Assembly: GCA_039190745.1 (NCBI GenBank)
Contig: JBCCXZ010000009.1
Location: 1-64,000, forward strand
Direction of reading: 5' to 3'
Origin: Planctomycetota bacterium
GTDB taxonomy: Bacteria > Planctomycetota > Planctomycetia > Pirellulales > Lacipirellulaceae
Length of the DNA stretch: 64,000 nt
Shown piece by piece: positions 40,320 to 52,437 of the stretch. The position numbers and the translations under genes were made by a program. The notes below the pieces were generated by a model. The model saw only the letters and a program-made list of their open reading frames with translations, did not search any database and was not told where the DNA came from. Each line of letters begins with the position of its first letter. Position 1 is the stretch's first letter.

Positions 40320-41654
40320 ATGAATCCACTCCGCTTGCTCCTGTTTCTGCTGCTCGTCTTCCCGGCGGTCTCCCCTCATGCCGCGAAGGGGCACGAACCC
40401 CCGAAACGCTTCACCGAGAAGGCACAGCACAAGCCGACGCCGCTTCCCGACCGGGTGATCCTCACCCTGACCGAGTCGCCCGCCACGTCGGTCGACGTCA
40501 CTTGGCGGACGAGCACCGAGGTGGAAAAGAGCGTGGTGGAGGTCGCCCCGGCAGACGGCGTCGCGGGGAACCTCATGGCGGGCATCGTGCCCTGGGCTGA
40601 AGAAGTCGCCGGCGCGCACGAGCCGTTCAAGTCCGACCTGGGGACGTGCCACATGCACACCGCCCGGCTGGAGGGCTTGAAGCCGGCGACTATGTACGTC
40701 TACCGCGTCGGAGACGGCGACAAACGCTGGAGCGAGTGGCACCAGGTGGTAACGGCCAGCGACGCGGCGGAGCCGTTTACGTTCATCTACTTCGGCGACG
40801 CCCAGAACGCGGTTCGGTCGATGTGGTCGCGTGTCGTTCGCGAGGCGAACCTGACCGCGCCCAAGGCGGCGTTTATGCTGCACGCCGGCGACCTCATCAA
40901 CCGAGCCAACCGCGACGCGGAGTGGGGCGAGTGGTTCTACGCCGGCGGCTGGCTGAATGGGCGGATCCCCTCCATCGCCACGCCGGGCAACCACGAGTAC
41001 GACAGGCTCCCCGGGGAAGACGACAAGAGCCTGTCGCTGCATTGGCGGCCCTCCTTCTCGTTCCCAACGAACGGACCGGAAGGGCTGGAGGAAACCGTCT
41101 ACTGGCTCGACTATCAGGGCGTGCGTTTCGTCGCGCTCAACAGCAACGAGCAGGTCGACCGACAGACCGAGTGGCTGCGCAGCGTACTCGCGGACGCGTC
41201 GCGGCCGAAATGGACTGTGGTCACTTTTCACCACCCGATCTACTCCGCGGCCCGCAACCGCGACAACCCCGGCCTGCGTAAGCAGTGGCGGCCGCTGCTG
41301 GAGGAGCAGGGCGTCGACCTGGTGCTGCAGGGGCACGACCACGCCTACGCCCGCTCCGGGCTAGGCGGTCCCGAAAACGTGACCGAAGGAGTGCGGACGA
41401 AGCAGAGCAACACGGTCTACGTCGTTAGCGTCAGCGGCCCGAAAATGTACCCGGTGCAACAAACCTGGGACATGAGCCGCGCCGCCTCGGGGGTGCAGCT
41501 CTTCCAGGTGATCTACGTCTCGCAGGATGACATCAAATATGAAGCCCGGCTCGCTACGGGCGAGCTCTACGACGCGTTCACGCTTACGAAGAACGCCGAC
41601 GGCGTGAGCACGCTCACCGAACAAGTGCCGGAGACAGAGGCAATCCGAAAGTAA
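40320..41654 (+). CDS. Purple acid phosphatase-like metallophosphoesterase with FN3-like N-domain
   Basis: GDAQ, HAGDL, GNHE, FHHP and GHDH; signal peptide. Confidence 0.9.
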   Translation: MNPLRLLLFLLLVFPAVSPHAAKGHEPPKRFTEKAQHKPTPLPDRVILTLTESPATSVDVTWRTSTEVEKSVVEVAPADGVAGNLMAGIVPWAEEVAGAHEPFKSDLGTCHMHTARLEGLKPATMYVYRVGDGDKRWSEWHQVVTASDAAEPFTFIYFGDAQNAVRSMWSRVVREANLTAPKAAFMLHAGDLINRANRDAEWGEWFYAGGWLNGRIPSIATPGNHEYDRLPGEDDKSLSLHWRPSFSFPTNGPEGLEETVYWLDYQGVRFVALNSNEQVDRQTEWLRSVLADASRPKWTVVTFHHPIYSAARNRDNPGLRKQWRPLLEEQGVDLVLQGHDHAYARSGLGGPENVTEGVRTKQSNTVYVVSVSGPKMYPVQQTWDMSRAASGVQLFQVIYVSQDDIKYEARLATGELYDAFTLTKNADGVSTLTEQVPETEAIRK

Positions 41655-41671
41655 TAGCCAGTGGGGAATGA

Positions 41672-41698
41672 ACCGCAGAGGACGCGGAGGGCGCAGAG
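41672..41698 (+). repeat. CGCAGAG 9-bp-period arm (left inverted repeat of the GxxExxY cassette)
   Basis: ACCGCAGAGGACGCGGAGGGCGCAGAG is the reverse complement of 42165-42191 at 25/27 positions. Confidence 0.9.
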
Positions 41699-41736
41699 AG
41701 AAAAAGAGAGAAAAGAAGTAGCAGGAAGGGGTTTGG

Positions 41737-42114
41737 ATGGAGGTGAACAAGGTTAGCGGGGCCATTGTCGATGCGGCAATGAAAGTGCACTCGGCACTGG
41801 GGCCAGGGTTATTGGAGTCGGCCTACGAAGGCTGTCTTACTTTTGAGTTGAATCGCCGGGGATTGTCGGTTGCTCGGCAAAACGAACTGCCCGTCGTCTA
41901 CGAGAAAGTCCGGATAGATGTTGGCTATCGTTTGGACTTGCTGGTTGAAGAATCCGTGATAGTAGAGCTGAAGGCGGTCGAGAAGCTAAAGGAAATCCAT
42001 AAGGCCCAGCTACTCAGTTACCTCAAACTGAGCAACAAGCCAGTCGGTCTCCTCATCAACTTTCACGTACAGAGATTGAAAGACGGAATCGTCCGCCTAG
42101 CAAACAACGCCTAG
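41737..42114 (+). CDS. GxxExxY protein (PD-(D/E)XK-like)
   Basis: VHSALGPGLLESAYE, RLDLLVE..VIVELKAV, QLLSYLK and GLLINF; visibly lower GC than its neighbours. Confidence 0.93.
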   Translation: MEVNKVSGAIVDAAMKVHSALGPGLLESAYEGCLTFELNRRGLSVARQNELPVVYEKVRIDVGYRLDLLVEESVIVELKAVEKLKEIHKAQLLSYLKLSNKPVGLLINFHVQRLKDGIVRLANNA

Positions 42115-42164
42115 CAGCCACGTACTTTCCTCTTCTTGCCTCTTTCCCTCTTCCTCTCCTTTTC

Positions 42165-42191
42165 CTCTGCGACCTCCGCGACCTCTGCGGT
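42165..42191 (-). repeat. CGCAGAG 9-bp-period arm (right inverted repeat of the GxxExxY cassette)
   Basis: CTCTGCGACCTCCGCGACCTCTGCGGT. Confidence 0.9.
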
Positions 42192-42205
42192 AAATCCCCT
42201 CGCGT

Positions 42206-43267
42206 TCACCGCGTTTGCAGCTCGTCCAGAGTCACCGCGTACTCCATCAGCCGCTGGCCCTCGCTGCCGATGCCGACCATTGTCACCAAGACCGGCTGGG
42301 CGCCCCAGTCGATCCGCAGCACGCCGAAATTGGTCTGCCGCAGCACCGGCGAGACGCGGAAGCGGTTCGGCTCGTCCGCTTCGCCGGGGTCCTGCGTCAG
42401 GCCCGACGAGGTAAAGTCGACCATCGGGTACGGCGCCGCCTCTTCCTCGTCGCGCGAGATCTCCATGAGGTGGCGGTCGCCGGAGACCATCACCACGCCG
42501 CCGGCGCCCGTCTCGCCGATCAGGTCGTACAGCCGCCGCCGCTCGTGCGGGAAGTTGCCCCAGCACTCCCACTGGTGCTCGTAGGGCACGACCTGGATGC
42601 TCGACCCGATCACGCGCAGGTCGGCCGGCTTCTTGAGTTGCTCGCCGAGCCACGACCACTGCTCCTCGCCTAGGAGTTGGGGCGATCCGTCTTCGTGCGG
42701 GAGGTACGGCCCAATGTTCCCGCGTTGCCAGTTCTCTGCACGCCGCAAGGCGTCGCGGTGGTAGCGGGTGTCGAGCAGGATCACCTGCACCCGCCGGCCC
42801 GGCGGGCCGAACACCCACGCGCCGTACACGCCTTCACGCTGCCAGCGGAGCGAGTCGGCCGGCTCATTGAAGAACATCAGCATCAGCTGCTGCGACTCAC
42901 GCTTCATGGGGAACTCTTTGCCCGCGTCGTTCAGGCCGTAGTCGTGGTCGTCCCAGGTGGCGAGCACCGGGCAGGTCCGCAGGAGCCGCTGGTACCCAGG
43001 CTGCTGCCCGAGCACTCGGTAGGCCTCGGCGATGTCGCCCGGCGAGCGCGGCTTCTCCGGCGAGTCGGCGTACATGTTGTCGCCGATGAACAGGAACAAG
43101 TCCGGCTGCTGGGCGATCACCTGATCCCAGATCGGCTGCGGGCGGTCTTCCTTGGCGCAGGAGCCGAAGGCGATCGTGTCGATCACCCCGTCGGCGGCGG
43201 AAACTGCCTGCATCGAAAGAACAGTGCAAGCGGCGAGCAGGATCAGAGCAGCGGCGGAGCGTGACAT
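42206..43267 (-). CDS. phoD: PhoD-family alkaline phosphatase
   Basis: IAFGSC, GDNMYAD, WDDHD, LLDTRY, LLGEEQW.WL and SGDRH. Confidence 0.88.
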   Translation of the reverse strand: MSRSAAALILLAACTVLSMQAVSAADGVIDTIAFGSCAKEDRPQPIWDQVIAQQPDLFLFIGDNMYADSPEKPRSPGDIAEAYRVLGQQPGYQRLLRTCPVLATWDDHDYGLNDAGKEFPMKRESQQLMLMFFNEPADSLRWQREGVYGAWVFGPPGRRVQVILLDTRYHRDALRRAENWQRGNIGPYLPHEDGSPQLLGEEQWSWLGEQLKKPADLRVIGSSIQVVPYEHQWECWGNFPHERRRLYDLIGETGAGGVVMVSGDRHLMEISRDEEEAAPYPMVDFTSSGLTQDPGEADEPNRFRVSPVLRQTNFGVLRIDWGAQPVLVTMVGIGSEGQRLMEYAVTLDELQTR

Positions 43268-43516
43268 AGCGGCTTGGCGGGTAGAAGGGCAGGGCGGGGC
43301 ACACGGGAGTGTGACCGTTGCCGACCGAGCCCGTCAACCAGCCGCCGCGAATCTTCACGGGCATAACGGACACCGCACTGGCGCGAGGGCCGTCTTGCTC
43401 TTTGTGGGAGGCCTCTCCGAGGCCGATGATGTTCTCAAAGCAGACCGAAATCGGGCTCAGAGAGCCCCCCCACACTAGGACGAGAGCAGGAGAAGCCGGG
43501 CCCCTTCCCACTTTCC

Positions 43517-43545
43517 CTCCGCGTACTCTGCGCCCTCTGCGGTTC
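43517..43545 (-). repeat. Solo CGCAGAG arm just after the preA stop
   Basis: Minus strand reads GAACCGCAGAGGGCGCAGAGTACGCGGAG. Confidence 0.8.
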
Positions 43546-43549
43546 CACT

Positions 43550-44680
43550 CTACCCGCGGGCGAGCGCGTCGCTCTGCTCGACGAAGTCGTCGCCGTCCCA
43601 CTCCTCGTCGGCGGTGATCATCCGCTGCCGCTCTTTCTCGGCCTTCTTCGCCGCCCGGGCCTCGGCCTGGCGTTTGACCAGGTCGGCGTGCGTGGTGAAG
43701 AACTGCAACGAGTGCCCGCGGAAGTCGTCGAGCGTCTCGAACCCGTGCTGCTCCATGAAGGCGAGCAGCTCCTCCTGCATGGTTTGCACGCAGCGGTAGC
43801 CCATCTTCATCACGCCGGTGCAGACCTGTACCGTGTGGCTGCCGAGCAGAATAAACTCCGCGGCGTCTTTGCCGGTCTCGACGCCGCCGATGCCGCTGAG
43901 CGTGCACTCTGGGAACTCGTCCCTCAGCACTGTGGCCACTTCCATACACATGCGCAGGGCGATCGGCTTAACCGCCTGACAAGAGTACCCGCCCGGCGTG
44001 GTGTAGCCCTCGACGTTCGGCTCGGGGCGGAGCGAGTCGAGGTCGACCCCAATAACGCTGCGGATGGTGTTGATCGCGGCGATGCCGTGGCAGCCCGCTT
44101 CGAGGCTGGCCCGCGTGGGGTCTTCAATGTGCGTGACGTTGGGCGTCATCTTGGCCCACACTGGCTTCTTGGCCACCTCCATCACCCAGCCGCACACCTC
44201 GCGGAGGATGTCGGGGTTCTCGCCCATCGCGGCGCCCATGCGGCGCTCCGGCAGCCCGTGCGGGCACGACATGTTCAGCTCGAACGAGTCGACCCCGGCC
44301 TCCTCGCAACGCCCGACGATCTCGTGCCACGCATCGCGGTTGTACTCTTCCATGATCGAGGCGATCAGGATGCCCTCAGGGTGCGAGTCCTTGAGCGCCT
44401 TGAACTCGTCGAGCCAGGTCTCGAAGCTGCGGTCGCTGATCAGCTCGATGTTCTCCCAGCCGTAGATCTCGTTCGACTCGCGGCTGCGGAGCCGGCCGTA
44501 GCGGGGCTGGACGTTGATCACCTTCGAGGCGTCGAGGCTGACCGTCTTGCAAATCACGGCGCCCCAACCGTCGTCGAACGCTCGGCCGATCACCTTGCCA
44601 TTGGTGCCGGGGGGGCCGGAGCCGATGACAAACGGGTTGGGGAGCTTCAGGCCGTTGACGGTCGTGGCGAGTGTGGGCAT
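43550..44680 (-). CDS. preA: Dihydropyrimidine dehydrogenase FMN subunit, plant PYD1-like, with no C-terminal ferredoxin domain
   Basis: NPFVIGSGPPGTN, NIELISDR, ELNMSCPHG, WAKMTPN, AINT, SGIGG and VQVCTG. Confidence 0.9.
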   Translation of the reverse strand: MPTLATTVNGLKLPNPFVIGSGPPGTNGKVIGRAFDDGWGAVICKTVSLDASKVINVQPRYGRLRSRESNEIYGWENIELISDRSFETWLDEFKALKDSHPEGILIASIMEEYNRDAWHEIVGRCEEAGVDSFELNMSCPHGLPERRMGAAMGENPDILREVCGWVMEVAKKPVWAKMTPNVTHIEDPTRASLEAGCHGIAAINTIRSVIGVDLDSLRPEPNVEGYTTPGGYSCQAVKPIALRMCMEVATVLRDEFPECTLSGIGGVETGKDAAEFILLGSHTVQVCTGVMKMGYRCVQTMQEELLAFMEQHGFETLDDFRGHSLQFFTTHADLVKRQAEARAAKKAEKERQRMITADEEWDGDDFVEQSDALARG

Positions 44681-44709
44681 GGCTCTGGCTTTCGATTCAA
44701 GAACAGTGA

Positions 44710-44851
44710 CTCTCGCAAAGGCGCGAAGGCGCAAAGGAGAGAGCCAAAGAGCTTCCTAAATGATGTCTTTCTGTTTTACCAAACTCGGCTATATACCTCT
44801 CGAAGAGCTAATGAAGACTCTTGATGTCTTCCCTTAGCGCCTTCGCGAGAG
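44710..44851. repeat. CGCAAAGG 8-bp-period inverted-repeat element with a short non-coding core
   Basis: CTCTCGCAAAGGCGCGAAGGCGCAAAGG (44710-44737) and CCTTAGCGCCTTCGCGAGAG (44832-44851). Confidence 0.8.
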
Positions 44852-44860
44852 CCTCTCCAC

Positions 44861-46216
44861 TCAGACTGTCAATTCCGAAAGCACCTCATCCAACGACGCG
44901 ACCAAGTAATCGGCGTCGTCCTTCGTGATGCACATCGGCGGTTTGATCCGCAGCGTGTTGCCGTACAGTCCGCCCTTGCCGACCAGCACGCTGCGTTCCT
45001 TCATCTTCTCCAGCACGTCGGCGGTCTCCGCGGCCGCGGGCTCTTTGGTCTTTCGGTGCTTCACGAGCTCGACGCCCAGCATGAGGCCCATGCCGCGCAC
45101 CTCGCCGATGAGAGCGTGCTTCTCTTGCAGCTCGAACAGCCGGTCTTTGAGGTGGCCGCCCACTTCCAGAGCGTTCTCCTGGATGCCGTCTTCTTCGATG
45201 ACTTCGAGCGTAGCCAGCCCCTGGGTCATGCTCACGGGGTTGCCGCCGTAGGTGTTGAAGTGCACGCGATTCTTCATCATCTGGGAGATCGGATCGGTCG
45301 TGGTGAACGCCCCCAGCGGGGCGCCGTTGCCGATGCCCTTGGCCATCGTGATGCCGTCGGGCACCACGCCCCAGTTCTGGTGGGCCCAAAAGTGCTTGCC
45401 TGTGCGGCCGAAACCGCCCTGCACTTCGTCGGCGTAGCACAGCCCGCCGTGCTCGCGGACGATGTCGTACACGATCTGGAAGAACTCCGGCGGCGGGGTC
45501 ACGGCGCCGCCGACGCCCTGGATCGGCTCGCCGATGAAGCACGCCACCTCGCCGGGGGTTTGGTACTCGATGACGTTCTTCACGTCGTGGGCGCACTTCA
45601 AGCCGCAGCTGGGGTACTCGAGGTTGAAGGGGCAGCGGTAGCAGTACCCCGCGTGCGTGTGCAGGATGCCCGGGGCCTGGTTCGACTTGAACCGCCACGT
45701 GCCGTGGGCGGTGAGGCCCATCGTGGTGGCGGTGCCGCCGTGGTAGGCGTTCCGCAGGCCAATGACGTCGGTGTTGCCGGTGTGCTCGCGGGCCGAGAGG
45801 ATCGCGACCTCGTTCGCCTCGCTCCCGGAGTTCGTGAAGTACGTCCGGTCGAGCCCCTCGGGCATGTGCGAGGCGAGCTTCTCGGCGAACTTGGCGATGT
45901 TTGGGTGCAGGTAGATCGTCGTCAGGTGCTGCAGCTTGCCGTTCTGCTCGTCGATCTTCTCGATCACCTTCGGGTGGCAGTGCCCGACGCTGACGGTGAC
46001 GATCCCCGCGAAGGCGTCGAGGTACCGCTTGCCGGTCTCGTCCCAGACGTACTGCATCTTCCCCTCGACCACCATCAGGGGGTCGCGGTAGTAGGTGATC
46101 ACGCCGGGCGAGACGTACTGGCTCCGCAGCGCGATGACCTCCTCACGCGAGGGGCCGTCGTAGGCCGCGGGCTCGTGGTCGATGATTGGCAACTGCAATT
46201 GGGCGTCGGTGGACAT
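44861..46216 (-). CDS. Class III PLP aminotransferase, AGXT2/PYD4-like (beta-alanine aminotransferase candidate)
   Basis: YLDAFAGI, GHCHP, TNSGSEAN, GEPIQG, ADEVQGGFGRTG, TMAKGIGNG and NTYGGNP. Confidence 0.88.
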   Translation of the reverse strand: MSTDAQLQLPIIDHEPAAYDGPSREEVIALRSQYVSPGVITYYRDPLMVVEGKMQYVWDETGKRYLDAFAGIVTVSVGHCHPKVIEKIDEQNGKLQHLTTIYLHPNIAKFAEKLASHMPEGLDRTYFTNSGSEANEVAILSAREHTGNTDVIGLRNAYHGGTATTMGLTAHGTWRFKSNQAPGILHTHAGYCYRCPFNLEYPSCGLKCAHDVKNVIEYQTPGEVACFIGEPIQGVGGAVTPPPEFFQIVYDIVREHGGLCYADEVQGGFGRTGKHFWAHQNWGVVPDGITMAKGIGNGAPLGAFTTTDPISQMMKNRVHFNTYGGNPVSMTQGLATLEVIEEDGIQENALEVGGHLKDRLFELQEKHALIGEVRGMGLMLGVELVKHRKTKEPAAAETADVLEKMKERSVLVGKGGLYGNTLRIKPPMCITKDDADYLVASLDEVLSELTV

Positions 46217-46237
46217 AGGTTGTTATTCGAGGGGAAT

Positions 46238-46272
46238 GGACAGGATAACAGGATCAGCAGGATGGACAGGAT
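46238..46272 (+). repeat. Four CAGGAT repeats (solo arm) upstream of the aminotransferase start
   Basis: GGACAGGATAACAGGATCAGCAGGATGGACAGGAT. Confidence 0.8.
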
Positions 46273-46278
46273 TTCGTC

Positions 46279-46372
46279 TCTCGCACAGGCGCAAAGGCGC
46301 AAAGGCGCAAAGAAGAGATTGAGTAGCAGATTCACTCTGGAGCGTTCTTTGCGCCTTAGCGCCTTTGCGAGA
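46279..46372. repeat. CGCAAAGG 8-bp-period inverted-repeat element
   Basis: TCTCGCACAGGCGCAAAGGCGCAAAGGCGCAAAG (46279-46312) and CTTTGCGCCTTAGCGCCTTTGCGAGA (46347-46372). Confidence 0.85.
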
Positions 46373-46387
46373 TTTCTTCTTTCCAAG

Positions 46388-47839
46388 TTACTCGGCGCCA
46401 ACATCCACATCCCCCACCTGGGGCGTCAGCACGCCTGGCGGTTCGCCGAGGCCGCGTTCTGCTTGCGTGCCGGGGATGAGGTTGTCCAATGCGATGCCCA
46501 GGATCGCCGCCACGGCCATGCCCGTCTTGCCGATGGCGCCGAGCAGCTGGCCAGAATCTCCCATTCTATCAAGCAACGCGGCGCCGGCCTCGCTATTGAA
46601 GTAGGCCGGCACGCTCAGGCCCATGAACAACGCGAAGCCGCTGATCAGCAGGTTGCGGTCGCTGTTCAGGTCGGCCTTCGAGAGCTGCCGGACGCCCACG
46701 GCGCTGATCAAACCGAACATCACGCAGTAGAGCCCGCCGACCACCGGCTGAGGGATCGCGGTGGCGATCGCGCCGAACTTGCCGAACAGGCCCAGGACGA
46801 TGAGCACAACCGCGGCGATCTGCACCACGTATCGGCTGCCCACCTTGGTGAGGCCCACCAGGCCGATGTTCTCTGAGTAGCTGGTGCTGCTGAAGCCGCC
46901 GAACACGCCGGTGAGCGCACAGCCGACGCCCTCGAAGCCGATTCCGCGGGAGAGCTCCTCCGCGGTGGGGTCGCCGCCGCCGGCCATGTGCTTGCAGGCG
47001 TGGTAGTCGCCGAACGACTCGATCATCGACGCCAGGTACCCCGCGAGCACCGCGACGATAAACGCCGCGCTGAACTGGGGCATTCCCCAGGGGAAAACGA
47101 CCGTCGACGTGCGGAACCACTCGGCGTCCTTCACCGCGTCAAGGCTCACCCGCGCCGGGTGCCCCTCGCCGTAAACGCCCGCGGCGGTCAGCACCGAGCA
47201 CAGGCCGACCACCGTAAGGATGGCGATCAGCATCGGGAACAAGCGGAACAGCCAATTGGTCTTCGAGAGCACCAGCGAGATGACGATGATGAGCACCATG
47301 GTGAGGATGCTCGTCGGCCAGTGCGACGCCGCGACCGGCGCCCCCGCCTGGTAGAGCGCCAGGCCGATCAGCATGATCACCGGCCCCACCACCACCGGCG
47401 ACAGGTGCCGCCGCACAAAGCCCATCAGGCCGGTGAAGCCGATAGCCATCTCGCACACGGCGCCGACGATCACCGCCCCCGCGATGTACCGCATGCACAT
47501 CGCCCCGTCGCCGCCGAGGCCGCCTTCCTCCACCGGCGCCACCACCGTGGGGATGATCACGCCGCTGAACGCCGCGAGGAACGAGAAGCTCACGCCCTGG
47601 ATGATTGGCAGCCGCGAGCCGAAGGTCGACTGGAGCAGCGTCGCCACCCCGCTGCAGAGCATCACCGACGAGATCAAGAGCGCGATCTGCGCGGGCGACA
47701 TCCCCATCGCCGGCCCCAACAACAGCGGCACAGCCACCGTCGAGCCAAACATCGTCAGCACGTGCTGCAGCGAGAGCACCACCGCCCGCCCGAAAGGCGG
47801 CTTGTCGTCGAGGCCGTAGATGATTTGCGGGGAAGACAT
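46388..47839 (-). CDS. NCS2 uracil/xanthine permease
   Basis: LQHVLTMF, RLPIIQG.SF, ESFGDY and the NAT signature ENIGLVGLTKVGSR. Confidence 0.92.
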   Translation of the reverse strand: MSSPQIIYGLDDKPPFGRAVVLSLQHVLTMFGSTVAVPLLLGPAMGMSPAQIALLISSVMLCSGVATLLQSTFGSRLPIIQGVSFSFLAAFSGVIIPTVVAPVEEGGLGGDGAMCMRYIAGAVIVGAVCEMAIGFTGLMGFVRRHLSPVVVGPVIMLIGLALYQAGAPVAASHWPTSILTMVLIIVISLVLSKTNWLFRLFPMLIAILTVVGLCSVLTAAGVYGEGHPARVSLDAVKDAEWFRTSTVVFPWGMPQFSAAFIVAVLAGYLASMIESFGDYHACKHMAGGGDPTAEELSRGIGFEGVGCALTGVFGGFSSTSYSENIGLVGLTKVGSRYVVQIAAVVLIVLGLFGKFGAIATAIPQPVVGGLYCVMFGLISAVGVRQLSKADLNSDRNLLISGFALFMGLSVPAYFNSEAGAALLDRMGDSGQLLGAIGKTGMAVAAILGIALDNLIPGTQAERGLGEPPGVLTPQVGDVDVGAE

Positions 47840-47840
47840 A

Positions 47841-47875
47841 GATAGGATAACAGGATCGGCGGGATCTACAGGATC
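47841..47875 (+). repeat. CAGGAT-type arm (left inverted repeat of the phosphatase cassette)
   Basis: GATAGGATAACAGGATCGGCGGGATCTACAGGATC; its partner is ATCCCGTCGATCCTGCAAATCCTGTC at 48307-48332. Confidence 0.75.
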
Positions 47876-48308
47876 AGTCGGATGCGGATTTCAATGTGCG
47901 ATAGGCTTCTCGGACTTCCGCCCAAAGAGAATCCTTTATGTCTACAGGCTTCTTGTCTGCGATGCGCTCTATCGCCTCGGCGGGGTCGATCGAAAGAACG
48001 TGAGCGAGGCCAAATGCAGCAACCGTTGGTGATCGAGACAAACCAGCAGAACAAGCGACAGCGGTAGGAGTTCCAGAATCAAGCAATCCGAAGACCGAAC
48101 GAAGTAGCAGCTTCAGCATGGATCGGTTGTTTCCTGCGCCGTCATTCAATGGATACCGAAGGTAAACGAATTCCCTTGGCAAACCGCATGGCTGCTCCTC
48201 GAGAGCCACATCAACGACTGCGGAAACACCCTGATCATGAAGCATCCGAAGATCGTTGAGGCCTGCTCGGGAACTCACCCAAAGCATGCCGGCATGAATC
48301 TCCGTCAT
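47874..48308 (-). CDS. Dual-specificity/tyrosine phosphatase-like protein
   Basis: AVVDVA.E, R.PLNDG and the CX5R motif ACSAGLSRSP; lower GC than the operon genes. Confidence 0.8.
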   Translation of the reverse strand: MTEIHAGMLWVSSRAGLNDLRMLHDQGVSAVVDVALEEQPCGLPREFVYLRYPLNDGAGNNRSMLKLLLRSVFGLLDSGTPTAVACSAGLSRSPTVAAFGLAHVLSIDPAEAIERIADKKPVDIKDSLWAEVREAYRTLKSASD

Positions 48309-48375
48309 CCCGTCGATCCTGCAAATCCTGTCAGTCCTCCGCCTTCCTCTGCGCACTCCGCGATCTCTGCGGTTC
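48307..48375 (-). repeat. CAGGAT arm (48307-48332) plus solo CGCAGAG arm (48347-48375)
   Basis: Minus strand reads GAACCGCAGAGATCGCGGAGTGCGCAGAG ... GACAGGATTTGCAGGATCGACGGGAT. Confidence 0.8.
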
Positions 48376-48385
48376 ATCCCCCGAC

Positions 48386-49258
48386 CTACAGCTCAACAAT
48401 CGAGCCGTAAGTCTCCGGCCGGCGGTCGCGGAAGAACTGCCACGTGTTCCGCACTTCACGGATCATGTCGAAGTCCATGTCCGCGATCACGATGTCGTCC
48501 TCGTCGCGTTTCTCGCTCGCGGCGACGAACTGGCCCCGCGGGTCGCAGAAGTAGCTCTGGCCGTAGAACTCACCGATCCGCCAGGGCTCTTCCCAGCCGG
48601 GCCGGTTGATGGCGCCGACGAAGTACTGATTCGCCACAGCGTGGGCGGGCTGCTCCAGCTTCCAGAGGTACTCACTCAGCCCCGCGACCGTTGCCGACGG
48701 GTTGAACACAATCTCGGCGCCGGCCAATCCCAGGCAGCGGGCGCCGTCGGGGAAGTGGCGGTCGTAACAGATGTAGACGCCCACCTTGCCGACCGCCGTG
48801 TCGAAGATCGGGTACCCCAGGTTCCCCGGGCGGAAGTAGAACTTCTCCCAGAAGCCCGGCGCGCAGTGCGGGATGTGGATCTTGCGGAACTTGCCCAGGT
48901 ACTCGCCCGTGGCGTCGATCACCGAGGCCGTGTTGTAGTACACGCCCGGCAGGTCCTCTTCGTACATGGGCACAACCAGCACCATCTGGTGCTTCTTGGC
49001 CAGCTCCATCATCAGCTTGGTCGTCGGCCCGTCGGGCACGGGTTCGGTCAGCTCGTACCACTTCGCGTCTTGCTCAGCGCAGAAGTAAGGTCCATAGAAC
49101 AGCTCCTGCAGGCAGCAGACCTGGGCCCCCTGCTCGGCGGCCTGGGCGATCATCTCGACGTGCTTGTCGATCATCGCCTGCTTGATCTTCTCCACCGGGG
49201 AGGTGGTCGGTTCGCAGGTGGTGGCTTGAATCAATGCGCCGCGGACGATCCTGGGCAT
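48386..49258 (-). CDS. Beta-ureidopropionase-like carbon-nitrogen hydrolase
   Basis: CLQELF, RKIHIP, FWEKFYF and YICYDRHF (E-K-C triad); pyrimidine catabolism context. Confidence 0.88.
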   Translation of the reverse strand: MPRIVRGALIQATTCEPTTSPVEKIKQAMIDKHVEMIAQAAEQGAQVCCLQELFYGPYFCAEQDAKWYELTEPVPDGPTTKLMMELAKKHQMVLVVPMYEEDLPGVYYNTASVIDATGEYLGKFRKIHIPHCAPGFWEKFYFRPGNLGYPIFDTAVGKVGVYICYDRHFPDGARCLGLAGAEIVFNPSATVAGLSEYLWKLEQPAHAVANQYFVGAINRPGWEEPWRIGEFYGQSYFCDPRGQFVAASEKRDEDDIVIADMDFDMIREVRNTWQFFRDRRPETYGSIVEL

Positions 49259-49408
49259 GCGGCTTTTCCTCTCTGGTGAGCTCGTTGTGTGGAAGATGAC
49301 GGGCGAAAATGCAATCGCCTAACCCTTGGTGCCGCCACTGGTTCTGCGGTATCGTAACGGATTCTTCACACAAATCCTAGCAATGCCTTTCGAGCCAACG
49401 AGGCCGCG

Positions 49409-50923
49409 ATGAGCACCCCAACCGCCGCCGTTCAAGAAGTTCCGATCCTCTCCGGGGGGGGTTGGTCGACCGTCGCCGCCAATCAGTACGAGGAGGTCTA
49501 CAACCCCTCGACTGGTGAAGTGATCGCGCGCACCCCGCTGTGCGACGCCGCAGCCACCGACGCGGTCGTGCAGTCGGCCGCCAAGGCGCTGCCCGCCTGG
49601 AGCGCGACGCCCGTGGTCGAACGGGCGCGGGTGATGTTCCGCTTCCGCGAACTGCTCGACAAGCACTTCGACGAGATCGCCGCGCTGGTCACCCGCGAGC
49701 ACGGCAAGACCCTCGCCGAGTCGCGGGCCGAGGTGAACCGCGGCGTCGAGATGGTCGAGTTCGCCTGCGGCATCCCTAGCCTGATCACGGGCCAGGTCCT
49801 GCCGAACATCGCCGGCGACGTCGACGCCGAGACCGTCCGCCACCCCGTAGGGGTGTGCGCCGGGATCACGCCGTACAACTTCCCGCACATGGTGCCGCTG
49901 TGGATGATGCCGGTGGCGCTCACCTGCGGCAACACGTTCGTGCTGAAGCCTTCAGAGAAGGTGCCGCTCTCGGCGGTGCGGCTGGGCGAGCTGCTGCAAG
50001 AAGCCGGCCTGCCCGAGGGCGTGTTCAACATCGTCCACGGCGGCAAGGAGGTGGTCGACGCGTTGCTCGAACACCCGCTGGTGACCGCGGTGTCGTTCGT
50101 CGGCTCCACGCCGATTGCTGAGTACGTCTACCAAGTCGGTACCGCGAATGGCAAGCGCGTGCAGTCGGCCGGCGGGGCGAAGAACCACCTCATCGTGATG
50201 CCCGACGCCGAGATGGATCAAACCGTCAAAGCGCTCGCCGCGAGCGCCTACGGCTGCGGCGGCCAGCGGTGCATGGCGGGCAGCTTTGCCGTGGCGGTCG
50301 GCGACGCGGGCGACGCCGTGGTCGACGGCTTGGTCGAGCACGCCGGCGGGTTTAACGTTGGCCCCTCCGACGGCGACGAGTCGGTCGATATGGGCCCGCT
50401 GATCCGCGGCGCGCACGTCGACCGTGTGGCCAGTTATCTCGACGTGGCCGGGGGCGAGGGCGCCAACGTCGCGCTCGACGGCCGGCGGGAGTTCGACTCC
50501 AGCGGCTTCCTGATCGGCCCCAGCGTGGTCGACCGGGTGAAGCCCGGTTCGCAGATGGCGTGCGACGAGATCTTCGGCCCCGTGCTGAGCGTAGCCCGGG
50601 CCTCGACGCTCGAAGAAGCCCTCGCGATGGGCGACGCGTGCGAGTTCGGCAACGGCGCCGCGATCTTCACGCAGAGCGGCCACGCCGCCCGGGAGTTCAA
50701 GCACCGCTTCAACGCGGGCATGATCGGCGTGAACGTCGGCGTGCCGGCGCCGATGGCGTGGTTCCCCTTCACGGGCTGGAACCGCTCGTTCTTCGGCGAT
50801 CTGCACATGCAGGGGCTCGAGGGCGTGCAGTTCTACACGCGGCAGAAGGTGACCCTCACCCGCTGGCCCAAAATGGCCGATTCGCACGCCGACCCGGTCT
50901 GGAAGTCTTCCGCCCGCGGTTAG
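49409..50923 (+). CDS. mmsA: CoA-acylating (methyl)malonate-semialdehyde dehydrogenase
   Basis: ITPYNFP, KPSEKVP, FVGST, GGAKNH, GQRCMA, EIFGP and GVPAP..FPF.GW. Confidence 0.9.
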   Translation: MSTPTAAVQEVPILSGGGWSTVAANQYEEVYNPSTGEVIARTPLCDAAATDAVVQSAAKALPAWSATPVVERARVMFRFRELLDKHFDEIAALVTREHGKTLAESRAEVNRGVEMVEFACGIPSLITGQVLPNIAGDVDAETVRHPVGVCAGITPYNFPHMVPLWMMPVALTCGNTFVLKPSEKVPLSAVRLGELLQEAGLPEGVFNIVHGGKEVVDALLEHPLVTAVSFVGSTPIAEYVYQVGTANGKRVQSAGGAKNHLIVMPDAEMDQTVKALAASAYGCGGQRCMAGSFAVAVGDAGDAVVDGLVEHAGGFNVGPSDGDESVDMGPLIRGAHVDRVASYLDVAGGEGANVALDGRREFDSSGFLIGPSVVDRVKPGSQMACDEIFGPVLSVARASTLEEALAMGDACEFGNGAAIFTQSGHAAREFKHRFNAGMIGVNVGVPAPMAWFPFTGWNRSFFGDLHMQGLEGVQFYTRQKVTLTRWPKMADSHADPVWKSSARG

Positions 50924-50978
50924 TGCCGTTCAAGCTGATGGGACTACTCAGCTCACCAATGCAATGCTGCGTGGGGTT

Positions 50979-51182
50979 AAGGAGATGTGGGGATGGGTGG
51001 AGATAAGGGGGATGGCCGCCGGGCAGCCAACGTACTCCCTCTCAAGCACCTGAAGCTGATGGCGTTTCTTGTTGGACGACATCACTGGGGCCGAGCAACT
51101 CGCAAAGGACTTTAGTTTGTATAAGGTAGGAATCCCCTCCAAATGCCATCTCCTTCATCCCCAGCTATCTCCACATCTCCTT
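50979..51182. repeat. GGAGAT-period inverted-repeat element with a ~128 bp AT-richer core
   Basis: 38-bp arms at 50979-51016 and 51145-51182 pair at 31/38 positions, or 35/38 counting G-U on the + strand. Confidence 0.85.
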
Positions 51183-51333
51183 TTTCTTACCTGCGTTCCC
51201 GCTAGCTCGAATCAAGGCGTAATCCTGATATCCTCGGTGACCCACGTGCCGTCGATTCAGTGATCGATTACCATGATCCGTGCCGCCGGCGGGGCGTAGC
51301 TCGCCGGCTAGGAATCCACGAATAGAGATAACG

Positions 51334-52437
51334 ATGTTAGAAGTCCCCGAACGCATTCTGCACGGCCCCGGCCCTTCGCCGGTGGCGCCCAGCGTCCTCC
51401 AGGCCCTCGCCAAACCGTGCATCGGGCACATGGACCCCGAGTTCATGCGCGTGATGAACGAAGTGCGCGAGATGCTGCAACAGGCCTTCCAGACCAAGAA
51501 CGAGATGACGCTCGCGTGCAGCGGCACGGGCTCGGCGGGCGCCGAGATGCTGATGGACAACCTCGTCGAGCCCGGCGACACGTGCCTGATCGGCATCAAC
51601 GGCGTCTTCGGCGGCCGGCTGACCGACAAGGCCAAACGCGCCGGCGGCGAGGTGCACAACCTCCACGCCGACTGGGGACAGGTGTTCGACCAAGACCAAG
51701 TGCTCGAAGAAATCGAGCGGCTCAAGCCGAACCTCGTTGCGCTGGTCCACGCCGAGACCTCCACCGGCGCCCACCAACCGGTCGACCGGCTCGCCGACGC
51801 GGTACACAAGCACGGCGGCCTGCTGGTGATCGACTGCGTCACGTCGTTTACCGGACTGCCGGTGAAGATCGACGAGTGGGGCGTCGACGCCGCCTACACC
51901 GGCACGCAGAAGTGCCTCTCCTGCCCGCCGGGGCTGGGGCCGGTGACCCTCTCCGAACGGGCGATGCACAAAGCCAACGCGCGGAAGACGCCGGCAAACT
52001 CCTGGTACCTCGACCTCAGCCTAGTCGGCAACTACTGGGGCGGCAGCCGGGCCTACCATCACACGGCGCCGGTAAACATGAACTACGCCCTGCACGAGTC
52101 GCTGCGGCTGGTGCTCGAAGAGGGGCTCGACGCCCGCTTCGAGCGTCACCTCCGCACGCACAAGCTGCTCAAGGCAGGCCTCGAAGAACGCGGCTTCGAG
52201 TACGCCTCCGACCCCGAGCACTCGCTACCGATGCTCAACCTGGTGAAGATCCCCGCAGGCGTCGCCGACGAGGCCGCCGCACGGAAGCGGCTCTTGGAAG
52301 AGTGCAACCTGGAGATCGGCGGCGGCCTGGGCGCGCTGGCCGGCAAGTGTTGGCGGATCGGCCTGATGGGCCACGGCGCCCGTGAGGAAAGCGTCGATTA
52401 CATCCTCAAGTCACTCGACCGGGTGCTCGCCGCCTGA
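51334..52437 (+). CDS. Class V aminotransferase (alanine-glyoxylate/serine-pyruvate, PucG-like)
   Basis: GPGPS, SGTGSAG.E, HAETSTG, GTQKCLS.PPG, YHHTAP and WRIGLMG. Confidence 0.88.

Follow-up and report, generated by a model that had tools for sequence, protein, structure and literature searches.

Hairpin cassettes carrying GxxExxY nuclease genes, and their gene-less relatives, in the intergenic spacers of a planctomycete genome

A series of inverted repeats with arms made of short tandem units occupies the intergenic gaps between 41.6 and 51.3 kb of the 64,000-nt stretch of planctomycete DNA analyzed here (the window; contig JBCCXZ010000009.1 of assembly GCA_039190745.1, family Lacipirellulaceae, positions 1 to 64,000 of the forward strand), and one of these repeats encloses a gene for a small protein of the GxxExxY family. 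We regard the elements as probably belonging to a family of selfish "hairpin cassettes," whether as copies, as derivatives without the gene or as broken remnants; the family would be similar in logic to the repetitive extragenic palindromes (REPs), REPINs and REP-associated tyrosine transposases (RAYTs) but served by a different enzyme, a nuclease that we infer to be the mobilizer or homing enzyme. A complete cassette consists, in order, of an outer end TT(N)ACC, about three tandem units of 8 to 10 nt, a purine-rich stretch, the gene, a pyrimidine-rich stretch and the complementary arm. The gene encodes a PD-(D/E)XK nuclease of ∼125 amino acids and lacks a promoter of its own, and cassettes are placed either in operon spacers or directly 3' of a host gene that has the same orientation. 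We found no account of these elements in the literature on GxxExxY/PDDEXK_3 (PF13366) or on planctomycete intergenic repeats.

A broader proposal, which we advance tentatively and with doubt slightly outweighing confidence, is that GxxExxY cassettes represent a new class of autonomous mobile element distributed across bacterial phyla and into archaea. In this class a minimal PD-(D/E)XK nuclease would recognize iteron-like rows of 8- to 10-nt boxes in its own arms, would move or home without a transposase or integrase, and would spawn populations of gene-less hairpins, with nuclease and arm "dialects" diversifying together.

The cassette of the window has the following parts:

41664-41703, plus strand: left arm, three CGCRGAG (CGCAGAGG-type) units with a 9-nt period, beginning 10 nt past the phosphoesterase stop codon
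to 41736, plus strand: purine-rich stretch after the left arm, read from the sequence
41737-42114, plus strand: GxxExxY/PDDEXK_3 gene, 125 amino acids, 51.6% G+C, identified by profile matches, with intact E27, D67 and E77-x-K79
42125-42159, plus strand: pyrimidine-rich stretch before the right arm, read from the sequence
42160-42199, plus strand: right arm, complement of 41664-41703 (40 nt, 83% complementary)

The nuclease gene is tied to its arms

The association between gene and arms extends far beyond the window. The best 80 of 589 GxxExxY relatives from a one-genome-per-species scan are 53-71% identical to the window protein and span more than ten phyla plus one archaeon. Both flanks were present at 79 of these loci, and 49 of the 79 are bracketed by an inverted repeat scoring above the 95th percentile of mismatched upstream/downstream pairs (median score, 19 versus 8). 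The loci include members of the Acidobacteriota, Chloroflexota, Proteobacteria, Bacteroidota, Cyanobacteria and Verrucomicrobiota and one Methanosarcinales archaeon, and the arms are nearly all of one design, ACC followed by three CRCNNAG units. The window protein is only 32-57% identical to four aligned copies from its own genome, versus 53-71% to proteins of other phyla. As judged by these sequence comparisons, the cassettes have evidently spread horizontally across phyla.

We compared 41 genomes of the bacterial family to which the window belongs, of which 36 carry 1 to 13 copies of PF13366. A tree was inferred from 57 of the 59 distinct GxxExxY genes in this family (the other two were excluded, one because it contains a stop codon and one because a flank was missing), on which the arm class requires 14 changes versus 24.7 for shuffled labels, with none of 200 shuffles as low. 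Supported clades are characterized by CRCNNAG, CGCAAAGG, CRCNNATG or NGGAT arms, and the nuclease gene and its arms clearly descend together. The number of CRCNNAG three-unit arrays, which varies from 1 to 459 per genome within this one family, tracks the PF13366 copy number (Spearman 0.73 over the 41 non-independent genomes). Contrasts within genera are concordant in 10 cases, discordant in 2 and tied in 3, and the five genomes that lack PF13366 hold 1, 3, 11, 32 and 43 arrays, where the median is 98.5. GxxExxY is the sole gene found regularly between arms. Because bracketing, tree and copy number tie it specifically to the arms, it is the best candidate mobilizer, a role that the initial annotation had suggested for it.

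The GxxExxY protein

The open reading frame (ORF) at 41737-42114 matches Pfam PDDEXK_3 (PF13366) with 143.6 bits (cutoff, 22; E 4e-42) and NCBIfam TIGR04256 GxxExxY with 148.9 bits (cutoff, 35; E 7e-44). In an alignment of the window protein with the four copies from its own genome (5 sequences), G24, E27, Y30, D67, E77 and K79 are invariant, which comprise the GxxExxY motif and the D...E-x-K catalytic core. Structure prediction (pLDDT 91) yields a minimal alpha-beta PD-(D/E)XK fold whose best Foldseek matches are Cas4, lambda exonuclease and Hjc, all generic PD-(D/E)XK similarities with none at E <= 0.001, and no solved structure matched the family by sequence. Going by the predicted fold and the conserved residues, the protein looks active. 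Steczkiewicz 2012 enters PF13366 as "Unknown," with multiple transfers. The gene shares its orientation with the upstream neighbor in 50 of 57 cases, which fits expression by read-through.

The window's genome (G000; 3.89 Mb in 125 contigs, 95.5% complete) contains six PF13366 genes, flanked by arms of five or six types: CGCAGAGG, CGCAAAGG, CCGATGAACG, CACGAAAG, GGGGATG and GATTGCG/CACTAATC. Two GxxExxY copies in this genome look decayed, one with an in-frame TAA within the GxxExxY motif (L013; C17 35166-35513) and the other without an ATG, GTG or TTG before the conserved N terminus (L012; C3 36930-37271).

Elements turn over at orthologous spacers

Spacers between conserved genes hold different elements in different relatives. 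The queC-queE spacer of one other genus contains a GxxExxY cassette in four species. A single species has a CRCNNAG hairpin there that lacks the gene and holds a REP doublet within its loop, and another single species has a gene-less NGGAT hairpin. In one further species this spacer is 36 nt long and has no element, and the filled and empty forms together provide the presence/absence polymorphism in relatives by which the initial annotation had proposed to judge its idea. The window itself carries a minus-strand operon for reductive pyrimidine breakdown, and the spacer between its aminotransferase and PreA-like genes is occupied by an NGGAT-armed GxxExxY cassette in three other genera, by a gene-less NGGAT hairpin in one genus and by a CGCAAAGG hairpin in the window. 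The cassettes at this site are fitted closely between the genes: the stop codon of the upstream gene is located at the left arm's outer end or within that end, and the next start codon follows 6-20 nt past the right arm. Hairpins in the operon's spacers vary by genus in type and content and are often nested.

Smaller changes were seen in a relative that is ∼7% diverged, as measured in genes, and whose contigs show, as DNA, only spacer replacement and differences in unit number. Its arm at 44836 is longer than the window's right arm by exactly one 8-nt unit, its spacer after the aldehyde dehydrogenase gene measures 93 nt where the window has 394 nt, and other window spacers are replaced as well. 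Several joints across arms in these contigs, including 41699->42167 and 47874->48325, have sides of only 25-33 nt that may be other copies of the repeats, and they were not counted as empty alleles. A genome of the same genus (G001) lacks the pyrimidine operon, and its DNA-level matches to the window are repeats rather than genes. At the level of sequence, orthologous sites have evidently acquired some copies, lost others and exchanged one for another.

In the spacer between the permease and hydrolase genes, two genera have ∼1.2 kb of DNA (L003 7985-9200 and L005 7950-9240) with ORF-sized stretches on the opposite strand, which in L005 lie within NGGAT-type arms.

Tandem-unit arrays across the genome

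Arrays of three units are strongly concentrated in noncoding DNA. For the five main unit types we counted 52, 26, 15, 19 and 30 noncoding arrays versus 10, 1, 1, 0 and 4 coding ones, the split having been made with our own crude codon-score gene finder, and each of five Markov-1 simulations of noncoding DNA yielded 0-1 matches to the same patterns. The GGAT and GRGAT patterns overlap, such that a few arrays are counted twice among the 142. Single units are not over-represented genome-wide by motif counts, and it is the tandem arrays alone that are enriched. A Tandem Repeats Finder run over the genome returned 271 noncoding arrays with periods of 6-11 nt, which fall into about twenty unit families, some of them with 7-nt units; the four motif types distinguished in the initial annotation thus describe the window but fall well short of the genome's repertoire.

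The arms were also expected to be paired and oriented nonrandomly, which is borne out by the 142 noncoding arrays: 96 have a head-to-head partner, 5 have a partner in the opposite orientation only and 41 are orphans. There are 204 nonredundant noncoding inverted repeats in the genome, of which 57 have periodic arms, and 3 of these adjoin a contig end. The other 54 are distributed as 39 between co-oriented, 14 between convergent and 1 between divergent genes. Since divergent gaps make up 25% of gap length, the elements avoid them and therefore sit at the 3' ends of genes.

No unpaired GTAG or CGTC tag was found on the tandem-unit arms, and the window's genome gave no match to PF01797 (the HUH Y1 transposase), although at 95.5% completeness the assembly leaves this absence unproven. 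PF05635 (S23p) was not found in this genome either. A distinct family of GTAG-tagged REP doublets (REPIN-like, ∼73 nt) has 28 pattern matches in the genome, for example at 43404-43476 of the window, C54 9550-9622 and C7 77405-77477, and occurs by the dozens in G001; no Y1/RAYT gene accompanies it in the 95%-complete assembly of the window's genome. Two further palindromes, a poly-G/poly-C palindrome at a contig end (C2 140401-140507) and a perfect palindrome of 71+71 nt at a contig start (C23 1-142), are most likely assembly artifacts.

Arm symmetry, nesting and other enclosed genes

The symmetry between the two arms of a hairpin is maintained. In three tandem families, the best-matching arm was the hairpin's own partner in 10 of 14, 9 of 10 and 8 of 8 hairpins, and the corresponding figures for two further families were 3 of 7 and 2 of 5; among REP doublets, in contrast, this held for only 6 of 28. 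Hairpins were picked by pairing score, a choice that inflates the identity within a hairpin but not the contrast with the REP doublets. In four orthologous cassettes the spacing between units is equal in both arms (1, 2, 1 and 2 nt) while differing between species. Mismatches in the arms show no G-U excess on the transcribed strand, either in tandem-arm hairpins (39 sense versus 45 antisense) or in the other inverted repeats (63 G-U-compatible mismatches sense versus 84 antisense).

The loops of CRCNNAG hairpins often contain complete CACTAATC hairpins or REP doublets, which suggests that hairpin loops are preferred landing sites. Nested cases in the window's genome include C102 5690-5841, C4 60198-60366, C27 30380-30544, C8 17065-17217 and C54 17441-17608, with CRCNNAG or CACGAAAG hairpins as hosts.

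The initial annotation took the enclosed genes to be cargo in general, a claim that did not hold consistently beyond GxxExxY. The phosphatase-like gene that it had noted in the window is present in 10 of the 41 family genomes, where clear tandem-unit arms flank it in 3 and weak or one-sided arrays in 2 more, and several enclosed genes have an ordinary composition. A general enrichment of cargo was rejected, as in many cases the enclosed gene is an ORF with an ordinary codon score that lies between successive complete hairpins. At one locus (L149; G041 C3, upstream of 270821), more than 10 tandem CACGAAGG units lie 5' of the phosphatase-like gene and ∼3 complementary units lie 3' of it, one arm being greatly expanded. 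At C40 9416-10508 of the window's genome, an ORF of 269 amino acids, which from resemblance by eye only we take to be a candidate RNA methyltransferase, lies within two-layer arms of 75 nt, whose outer layer is ACAGGAT and inner layer CACTAATC, and it is flanked on both sides by a complete CACTAATC hairpin.

Other elements and genes of the window

Of the eight intergenic gaps in the interval from 41.6 to 51.3 kb, seven contain inverted repeats or orphan arms of 2-4 tandem units of 8-10 nt, in agreement with the initial annotation's view that such elements fill most gaps, and the sole arm-free gap is the divergent promoter gap at 49259-49408. All of the arms that it listed were recovered, none of them more than a few bases from the position it gave; they interrupt no gene, and no transposase or target duplication is visible. 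Its description of cassette-like elements other than insertion sequences (IS) stands. The genes in this interval encode a phosphoesterase, a PhoD-like protein, the minus-strand pyrimidine operon and a divergently transcribed aldehyde dehydrogenase. The gene set at 43550-50923, aldehyde dehydrogenase included, is an apparent reductive pyrimidine-degradation cluster whose gene order is kept in seven genera. In addition to the cassette above, the features are as follows:

43404-43476, unstranded: inverted doublet of GTAG-tagged REP-like hairpins (REPIN-like), a repeat family distinct from the tandem-unit arms and missing from the initial annotation
43515-43545, minus strand: orphan CGCRGAG (CGCAGAGG-type) arm, immediately 3' of the PreA stop codon in the operon sense
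43550-44734, minus strand: PreA-like dihydropyrimidine dehydrogenase subunit, pyrimidine operon
44710-44751/44818-44847, unstranded: gene-less CGCAAAGG hairpin with a 66-nt AT-rich loop, in the aminotransferase-PreA spacer
44861-46216, minus strand: class-III aminotransferase, pyrimidine operon
46238-46275, plus strand: orphan array of four ACAGGATNN units (CAGGAT type), just 5' of the aminotransferase start
46279-46314/46345-46372, unstranded: gene-less CGCAAAGG hairpin with a 30-nt loop and 96% complementary arms, in the permease-aminotransferase spacer
46388-47839, minus strand: uracil/xanthine-type permease, pyrimidine operon
47841-47880, plus strand: ACAGGAT-type arm, paired with 48307-48340
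47874-48311, minus strand: dual-specificity-phosphatase-like ORF, 145 amino acids from an ATG at 48311, 53.7% G+C, enclosed by the ACAGGAT arms
48307-48340, plus strand: ATCCTG-type arm, complement of the ACAGGAT arm at 47841-47880
48347-48375, minus strand: orphan CGCRGAG (CGCAGAGG-type) arm, immediately 3' of the carbon-nitrogen hydrolase stop codon
48386-49258, minus strand: carbon-nitrogen hydrolase, pyrimidine operon
50979-51016/51145-51182, unstranded: GGAGATG/GGGGATG hairpin with a 128-nt loop and 38-nt arms (82% complementary), downstream of the aldehyde dehydrogenase gene

The phosphatase-like ORF at 47874-48311 has a weak match to Pfam Tc-R-P (35.2 bits; cutoff, 27), and DSPc falls under its cutoff. 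Both enclosed ORFs have 52-54% G+C versus 64-69% in the neighboring genes and 65% in their context, which together with the profile matches agrees with the initial description of lower-GC nuclease-like and phosphatase-like genes. Folded whole as RNA, two hairpins of the window gave z-scores of -3.9/-2.4 and -6.5/-8.3. No Rfam 15 covariance model matched positions 41000-52000 on either strand at E <= 0.1.

Proposed mechanism and alternative explanations

In the mechanism that we envisage, the nuclease would be expressed by read-through from the upstream gene and would recognize arms of the type that flanks its own gene, whether by their rows of repeated boxes or by the hairpin or cruciform into which they are extruded. 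Cutting at arms could then lead to copying of the cassette, through homology-directed repair, into hairpins of the same arm type (homing), and could also spread gene-less hairpins much as RAYT transposases maintain REPINs. Slippage of units combined with correction of one arm by the other would keep the arms symmetric as they diversify.

Several points weigh against this account of mobile cassettes. Neither nuclease activity nor an excision product nor a fresh insertion has been seen, and we infer the mobilizing role from patterns in the sequences. Inspection by eye, rather than statistics, found no target-site duplication or defined junction at the listed hairpins or at the filled and empty queC-queE sites. 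The concordance between arm class and nuclease tree can be plain co-inheritance and is not itself proof that the protein recognizes the arms, the genomes compared are related rather than independent, and the gene calls were made with a crude codon-score finder. Two of the genomes without PF13366 have 32 and 43 arrays, for which reversed-pattern controls give at most 4, and one genome has no more than 2 nuclease genes despite its 450 arrays. In the window's genome, neither the abundant CACTAATC hairpins nor the 7-nt unit families are accompanied by an intact nuclease gene whose arms match theirs. Arms also surround genes other than GxxExxY, namely the phosphatase-like ORF and the 269-amino-acid ORF at C40 9559-10368, which has an ordinary codon score. 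The pyrimidine operon is kept in six other genera, and every one of its intercistronic spacers bears tandem-unit hairpins in all seven genera, which would fit a function for the host as well.

Much of this would be accommodated by the principal alternative, in which the hairpin is itself the mobile or self-propagating unit, moved by another enzyme of the host or by one encoded in unassembled sequence, and GxxExxY is a passenger, such as a selfish, homing-type, addiction or defense gene, that settles in the loops. Nested CACTAATC hairpins and REP doublets identify the loops of CRCNNAG hairpins as favored landing places, a phosphatase-like gene is enclosed by arms in 3 of 10 genomes, and both the arrays of PF13366-free genomes and the hairpin families without a cognate nuclease in the window's genome are what such a scheme would produce. 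Against it stand the same CRCNNAG arms around the gene in more than ten phyla, arm classes that track the nuclease tree and array numbers that go with nuclease copy number, and no Y1 transposase was found in the 95% complete assembly. We consider this alternative unlikely, though it is the one to be taken most seriously.

A second possibility is that the hairpins serve the host as structures in transcripts or DNA (intercistronic mRNA stabilizers, processing sites or terminators), maintained by selection and varied by unit slippage, with the small genes being incidental. Their stable folds, their maintained arm symmetry, their position at gene 3' ends and in operon spacers (1 of 54 in promoter-only gaps) and the hairpins of differing type in every intercistronic spacer of the pyrimidine operon in seven genera would all be explained. 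We nonetheless judge it improbable: one species dispenses with any element in a 36-nt queC-queE spacer that is filled in seven relatives, hairpin types vary freely at a single site, no strand-specific G-U excess is apparent (39 versus 45), no Rfam family matches, array numbers range from 1 to 459 within one family, and the arms are bound to a horizontally spreading gene. More improbable still, although compatible with mobile hairpin cassettes, is the proposal of the initial annotation that the arms pair in the transcript and that RNase III removes the cargo as in rRNA intervening sequences (IVS), which would render operon inserts harmless. The cassettes do lie within operons in the same orientation with predicted arm stems of 25-40 bp, and their architecture recalls the Coxiella 23S rRNA IVS, a selfish element with an internal ORF (PMC4990558). 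On the other side, arm mismatches are unbiased toward sense-strand G-U pairs, orphan arms are common (41 of 142), and excision of the cargo from mRNA would also block its translation.

Implications

No function has been assigned to PF13366/GxxExxY, although the family is very widespread, and the reading of these cassettes as a novel class of element, if true, would supply one. The tie between GxxExxY and a DNA structure makes this directly testable, as the nuclease should cut or bind its own arms. Hairpin cassettes would then form a second resident selfish repeat system beside REPIN/RAYT, mechanistically different from it, with gene-less hairpin populations that shape operon spacers. The elements occur in most operon spacers of a whole planctomycete family, so transcript structure and genome rearrangement are probably affected, and they account for a large number of spurious small ORFs as well as for breaks between contigs in assemblies.

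Comparison with known systems

The IVS of Coxiella burnetii 23S rRNA, with its S23p ORF, is likewise a small selfish element with complementary ends and an ORF of ∼100-130 amino acids of unknown function that is tolerated in a transcribed unit (PMC4990558). That IVS is situated in rRNA helix 45, whereas the cassettes lie between protein genes, encode PF13366 rather than PF05635 and have arms that are tandem-unit arrays.

Bacterial miniature inverted-repeat transposable elements (MITEs; Correia/NEMIS, ERIC, RUP and Nezha) are short, intergenic and non-autonomous; their terminal inverted repeats let them fold into hairpins, and their sites are polymorphic for presence or absence. The hairpin elements described here share these traits; unlike MITEs, they show no target-site duplication on inspection, their autonomous form bears a nuclease, and their arms contain internal repeats and diversify yet remain complementary to each other. 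A parent IS with a DDE transposase is not evident, no systematic search for an IS with these ends having been made. Foldback (FB) transposons of Drosophila have long inverted arms of short tandem repeats, vary in length by unit number and occasionally enclose genes, but they are eukaryotic, of kilobase scale and dependent on other enzymes, and homology to hairpin cassettes is not implied. The short tandemly repeated repetitive (STRR) heptamers of heterocystous cyanobacteria are families of 7-nt units in short intergenic tandem arrays, to which the 7-nt unit families of the window's genome bear a likeness; they have been described as arrays and are not known as nuclease-bearing hairpin cassettes, and the literature found on them uses them for fingerprinting.

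For the enzyme, I-Ssp6803I is a PD-(D/E)XK homing endonuclease that resides in a group I intron. Together with the Rpn/PDDEXK_2 proteins it provides a precedent for small PD-(D/E)XK nucleases driving selfish DNA, although both belong to other families without tandem-unit hairpin arms. PDDEXK_2 (Rpn recombination-promoting nucleases) is entered as "putative transposase" in PMC3424549.

REPs and REPINs are palindromes of 20-40 bp with an unpaired GTAG or CGTC tag and a cognate RAYT (TnpA-REP) transposase of the HUH Y1 type. The hairpin cassettes resemble this system in having extragenic palindromes at gene 3' ends, often as inverted doublets and with many gene-less copies; a cognate single-domain enzyme gene flanked by repeats, with repeat family and enzyme co-varying; and a copy number that varies widely among relatives (PMC3733652). 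The cassettes differ in that the enzyme is a PD-(D/E)XK nuclease and not an HUH tyrosine transposase, that the arms consist of about three tandem units of 8-10 nt without a GTAG or CGTC tag, and that the gene lies inside the loop of one long hairpin. The two kinds of repeat meet in the window's genome, where a genuine GTAG REP family co-occurs with the tandem-unit hairpins and nests within them.

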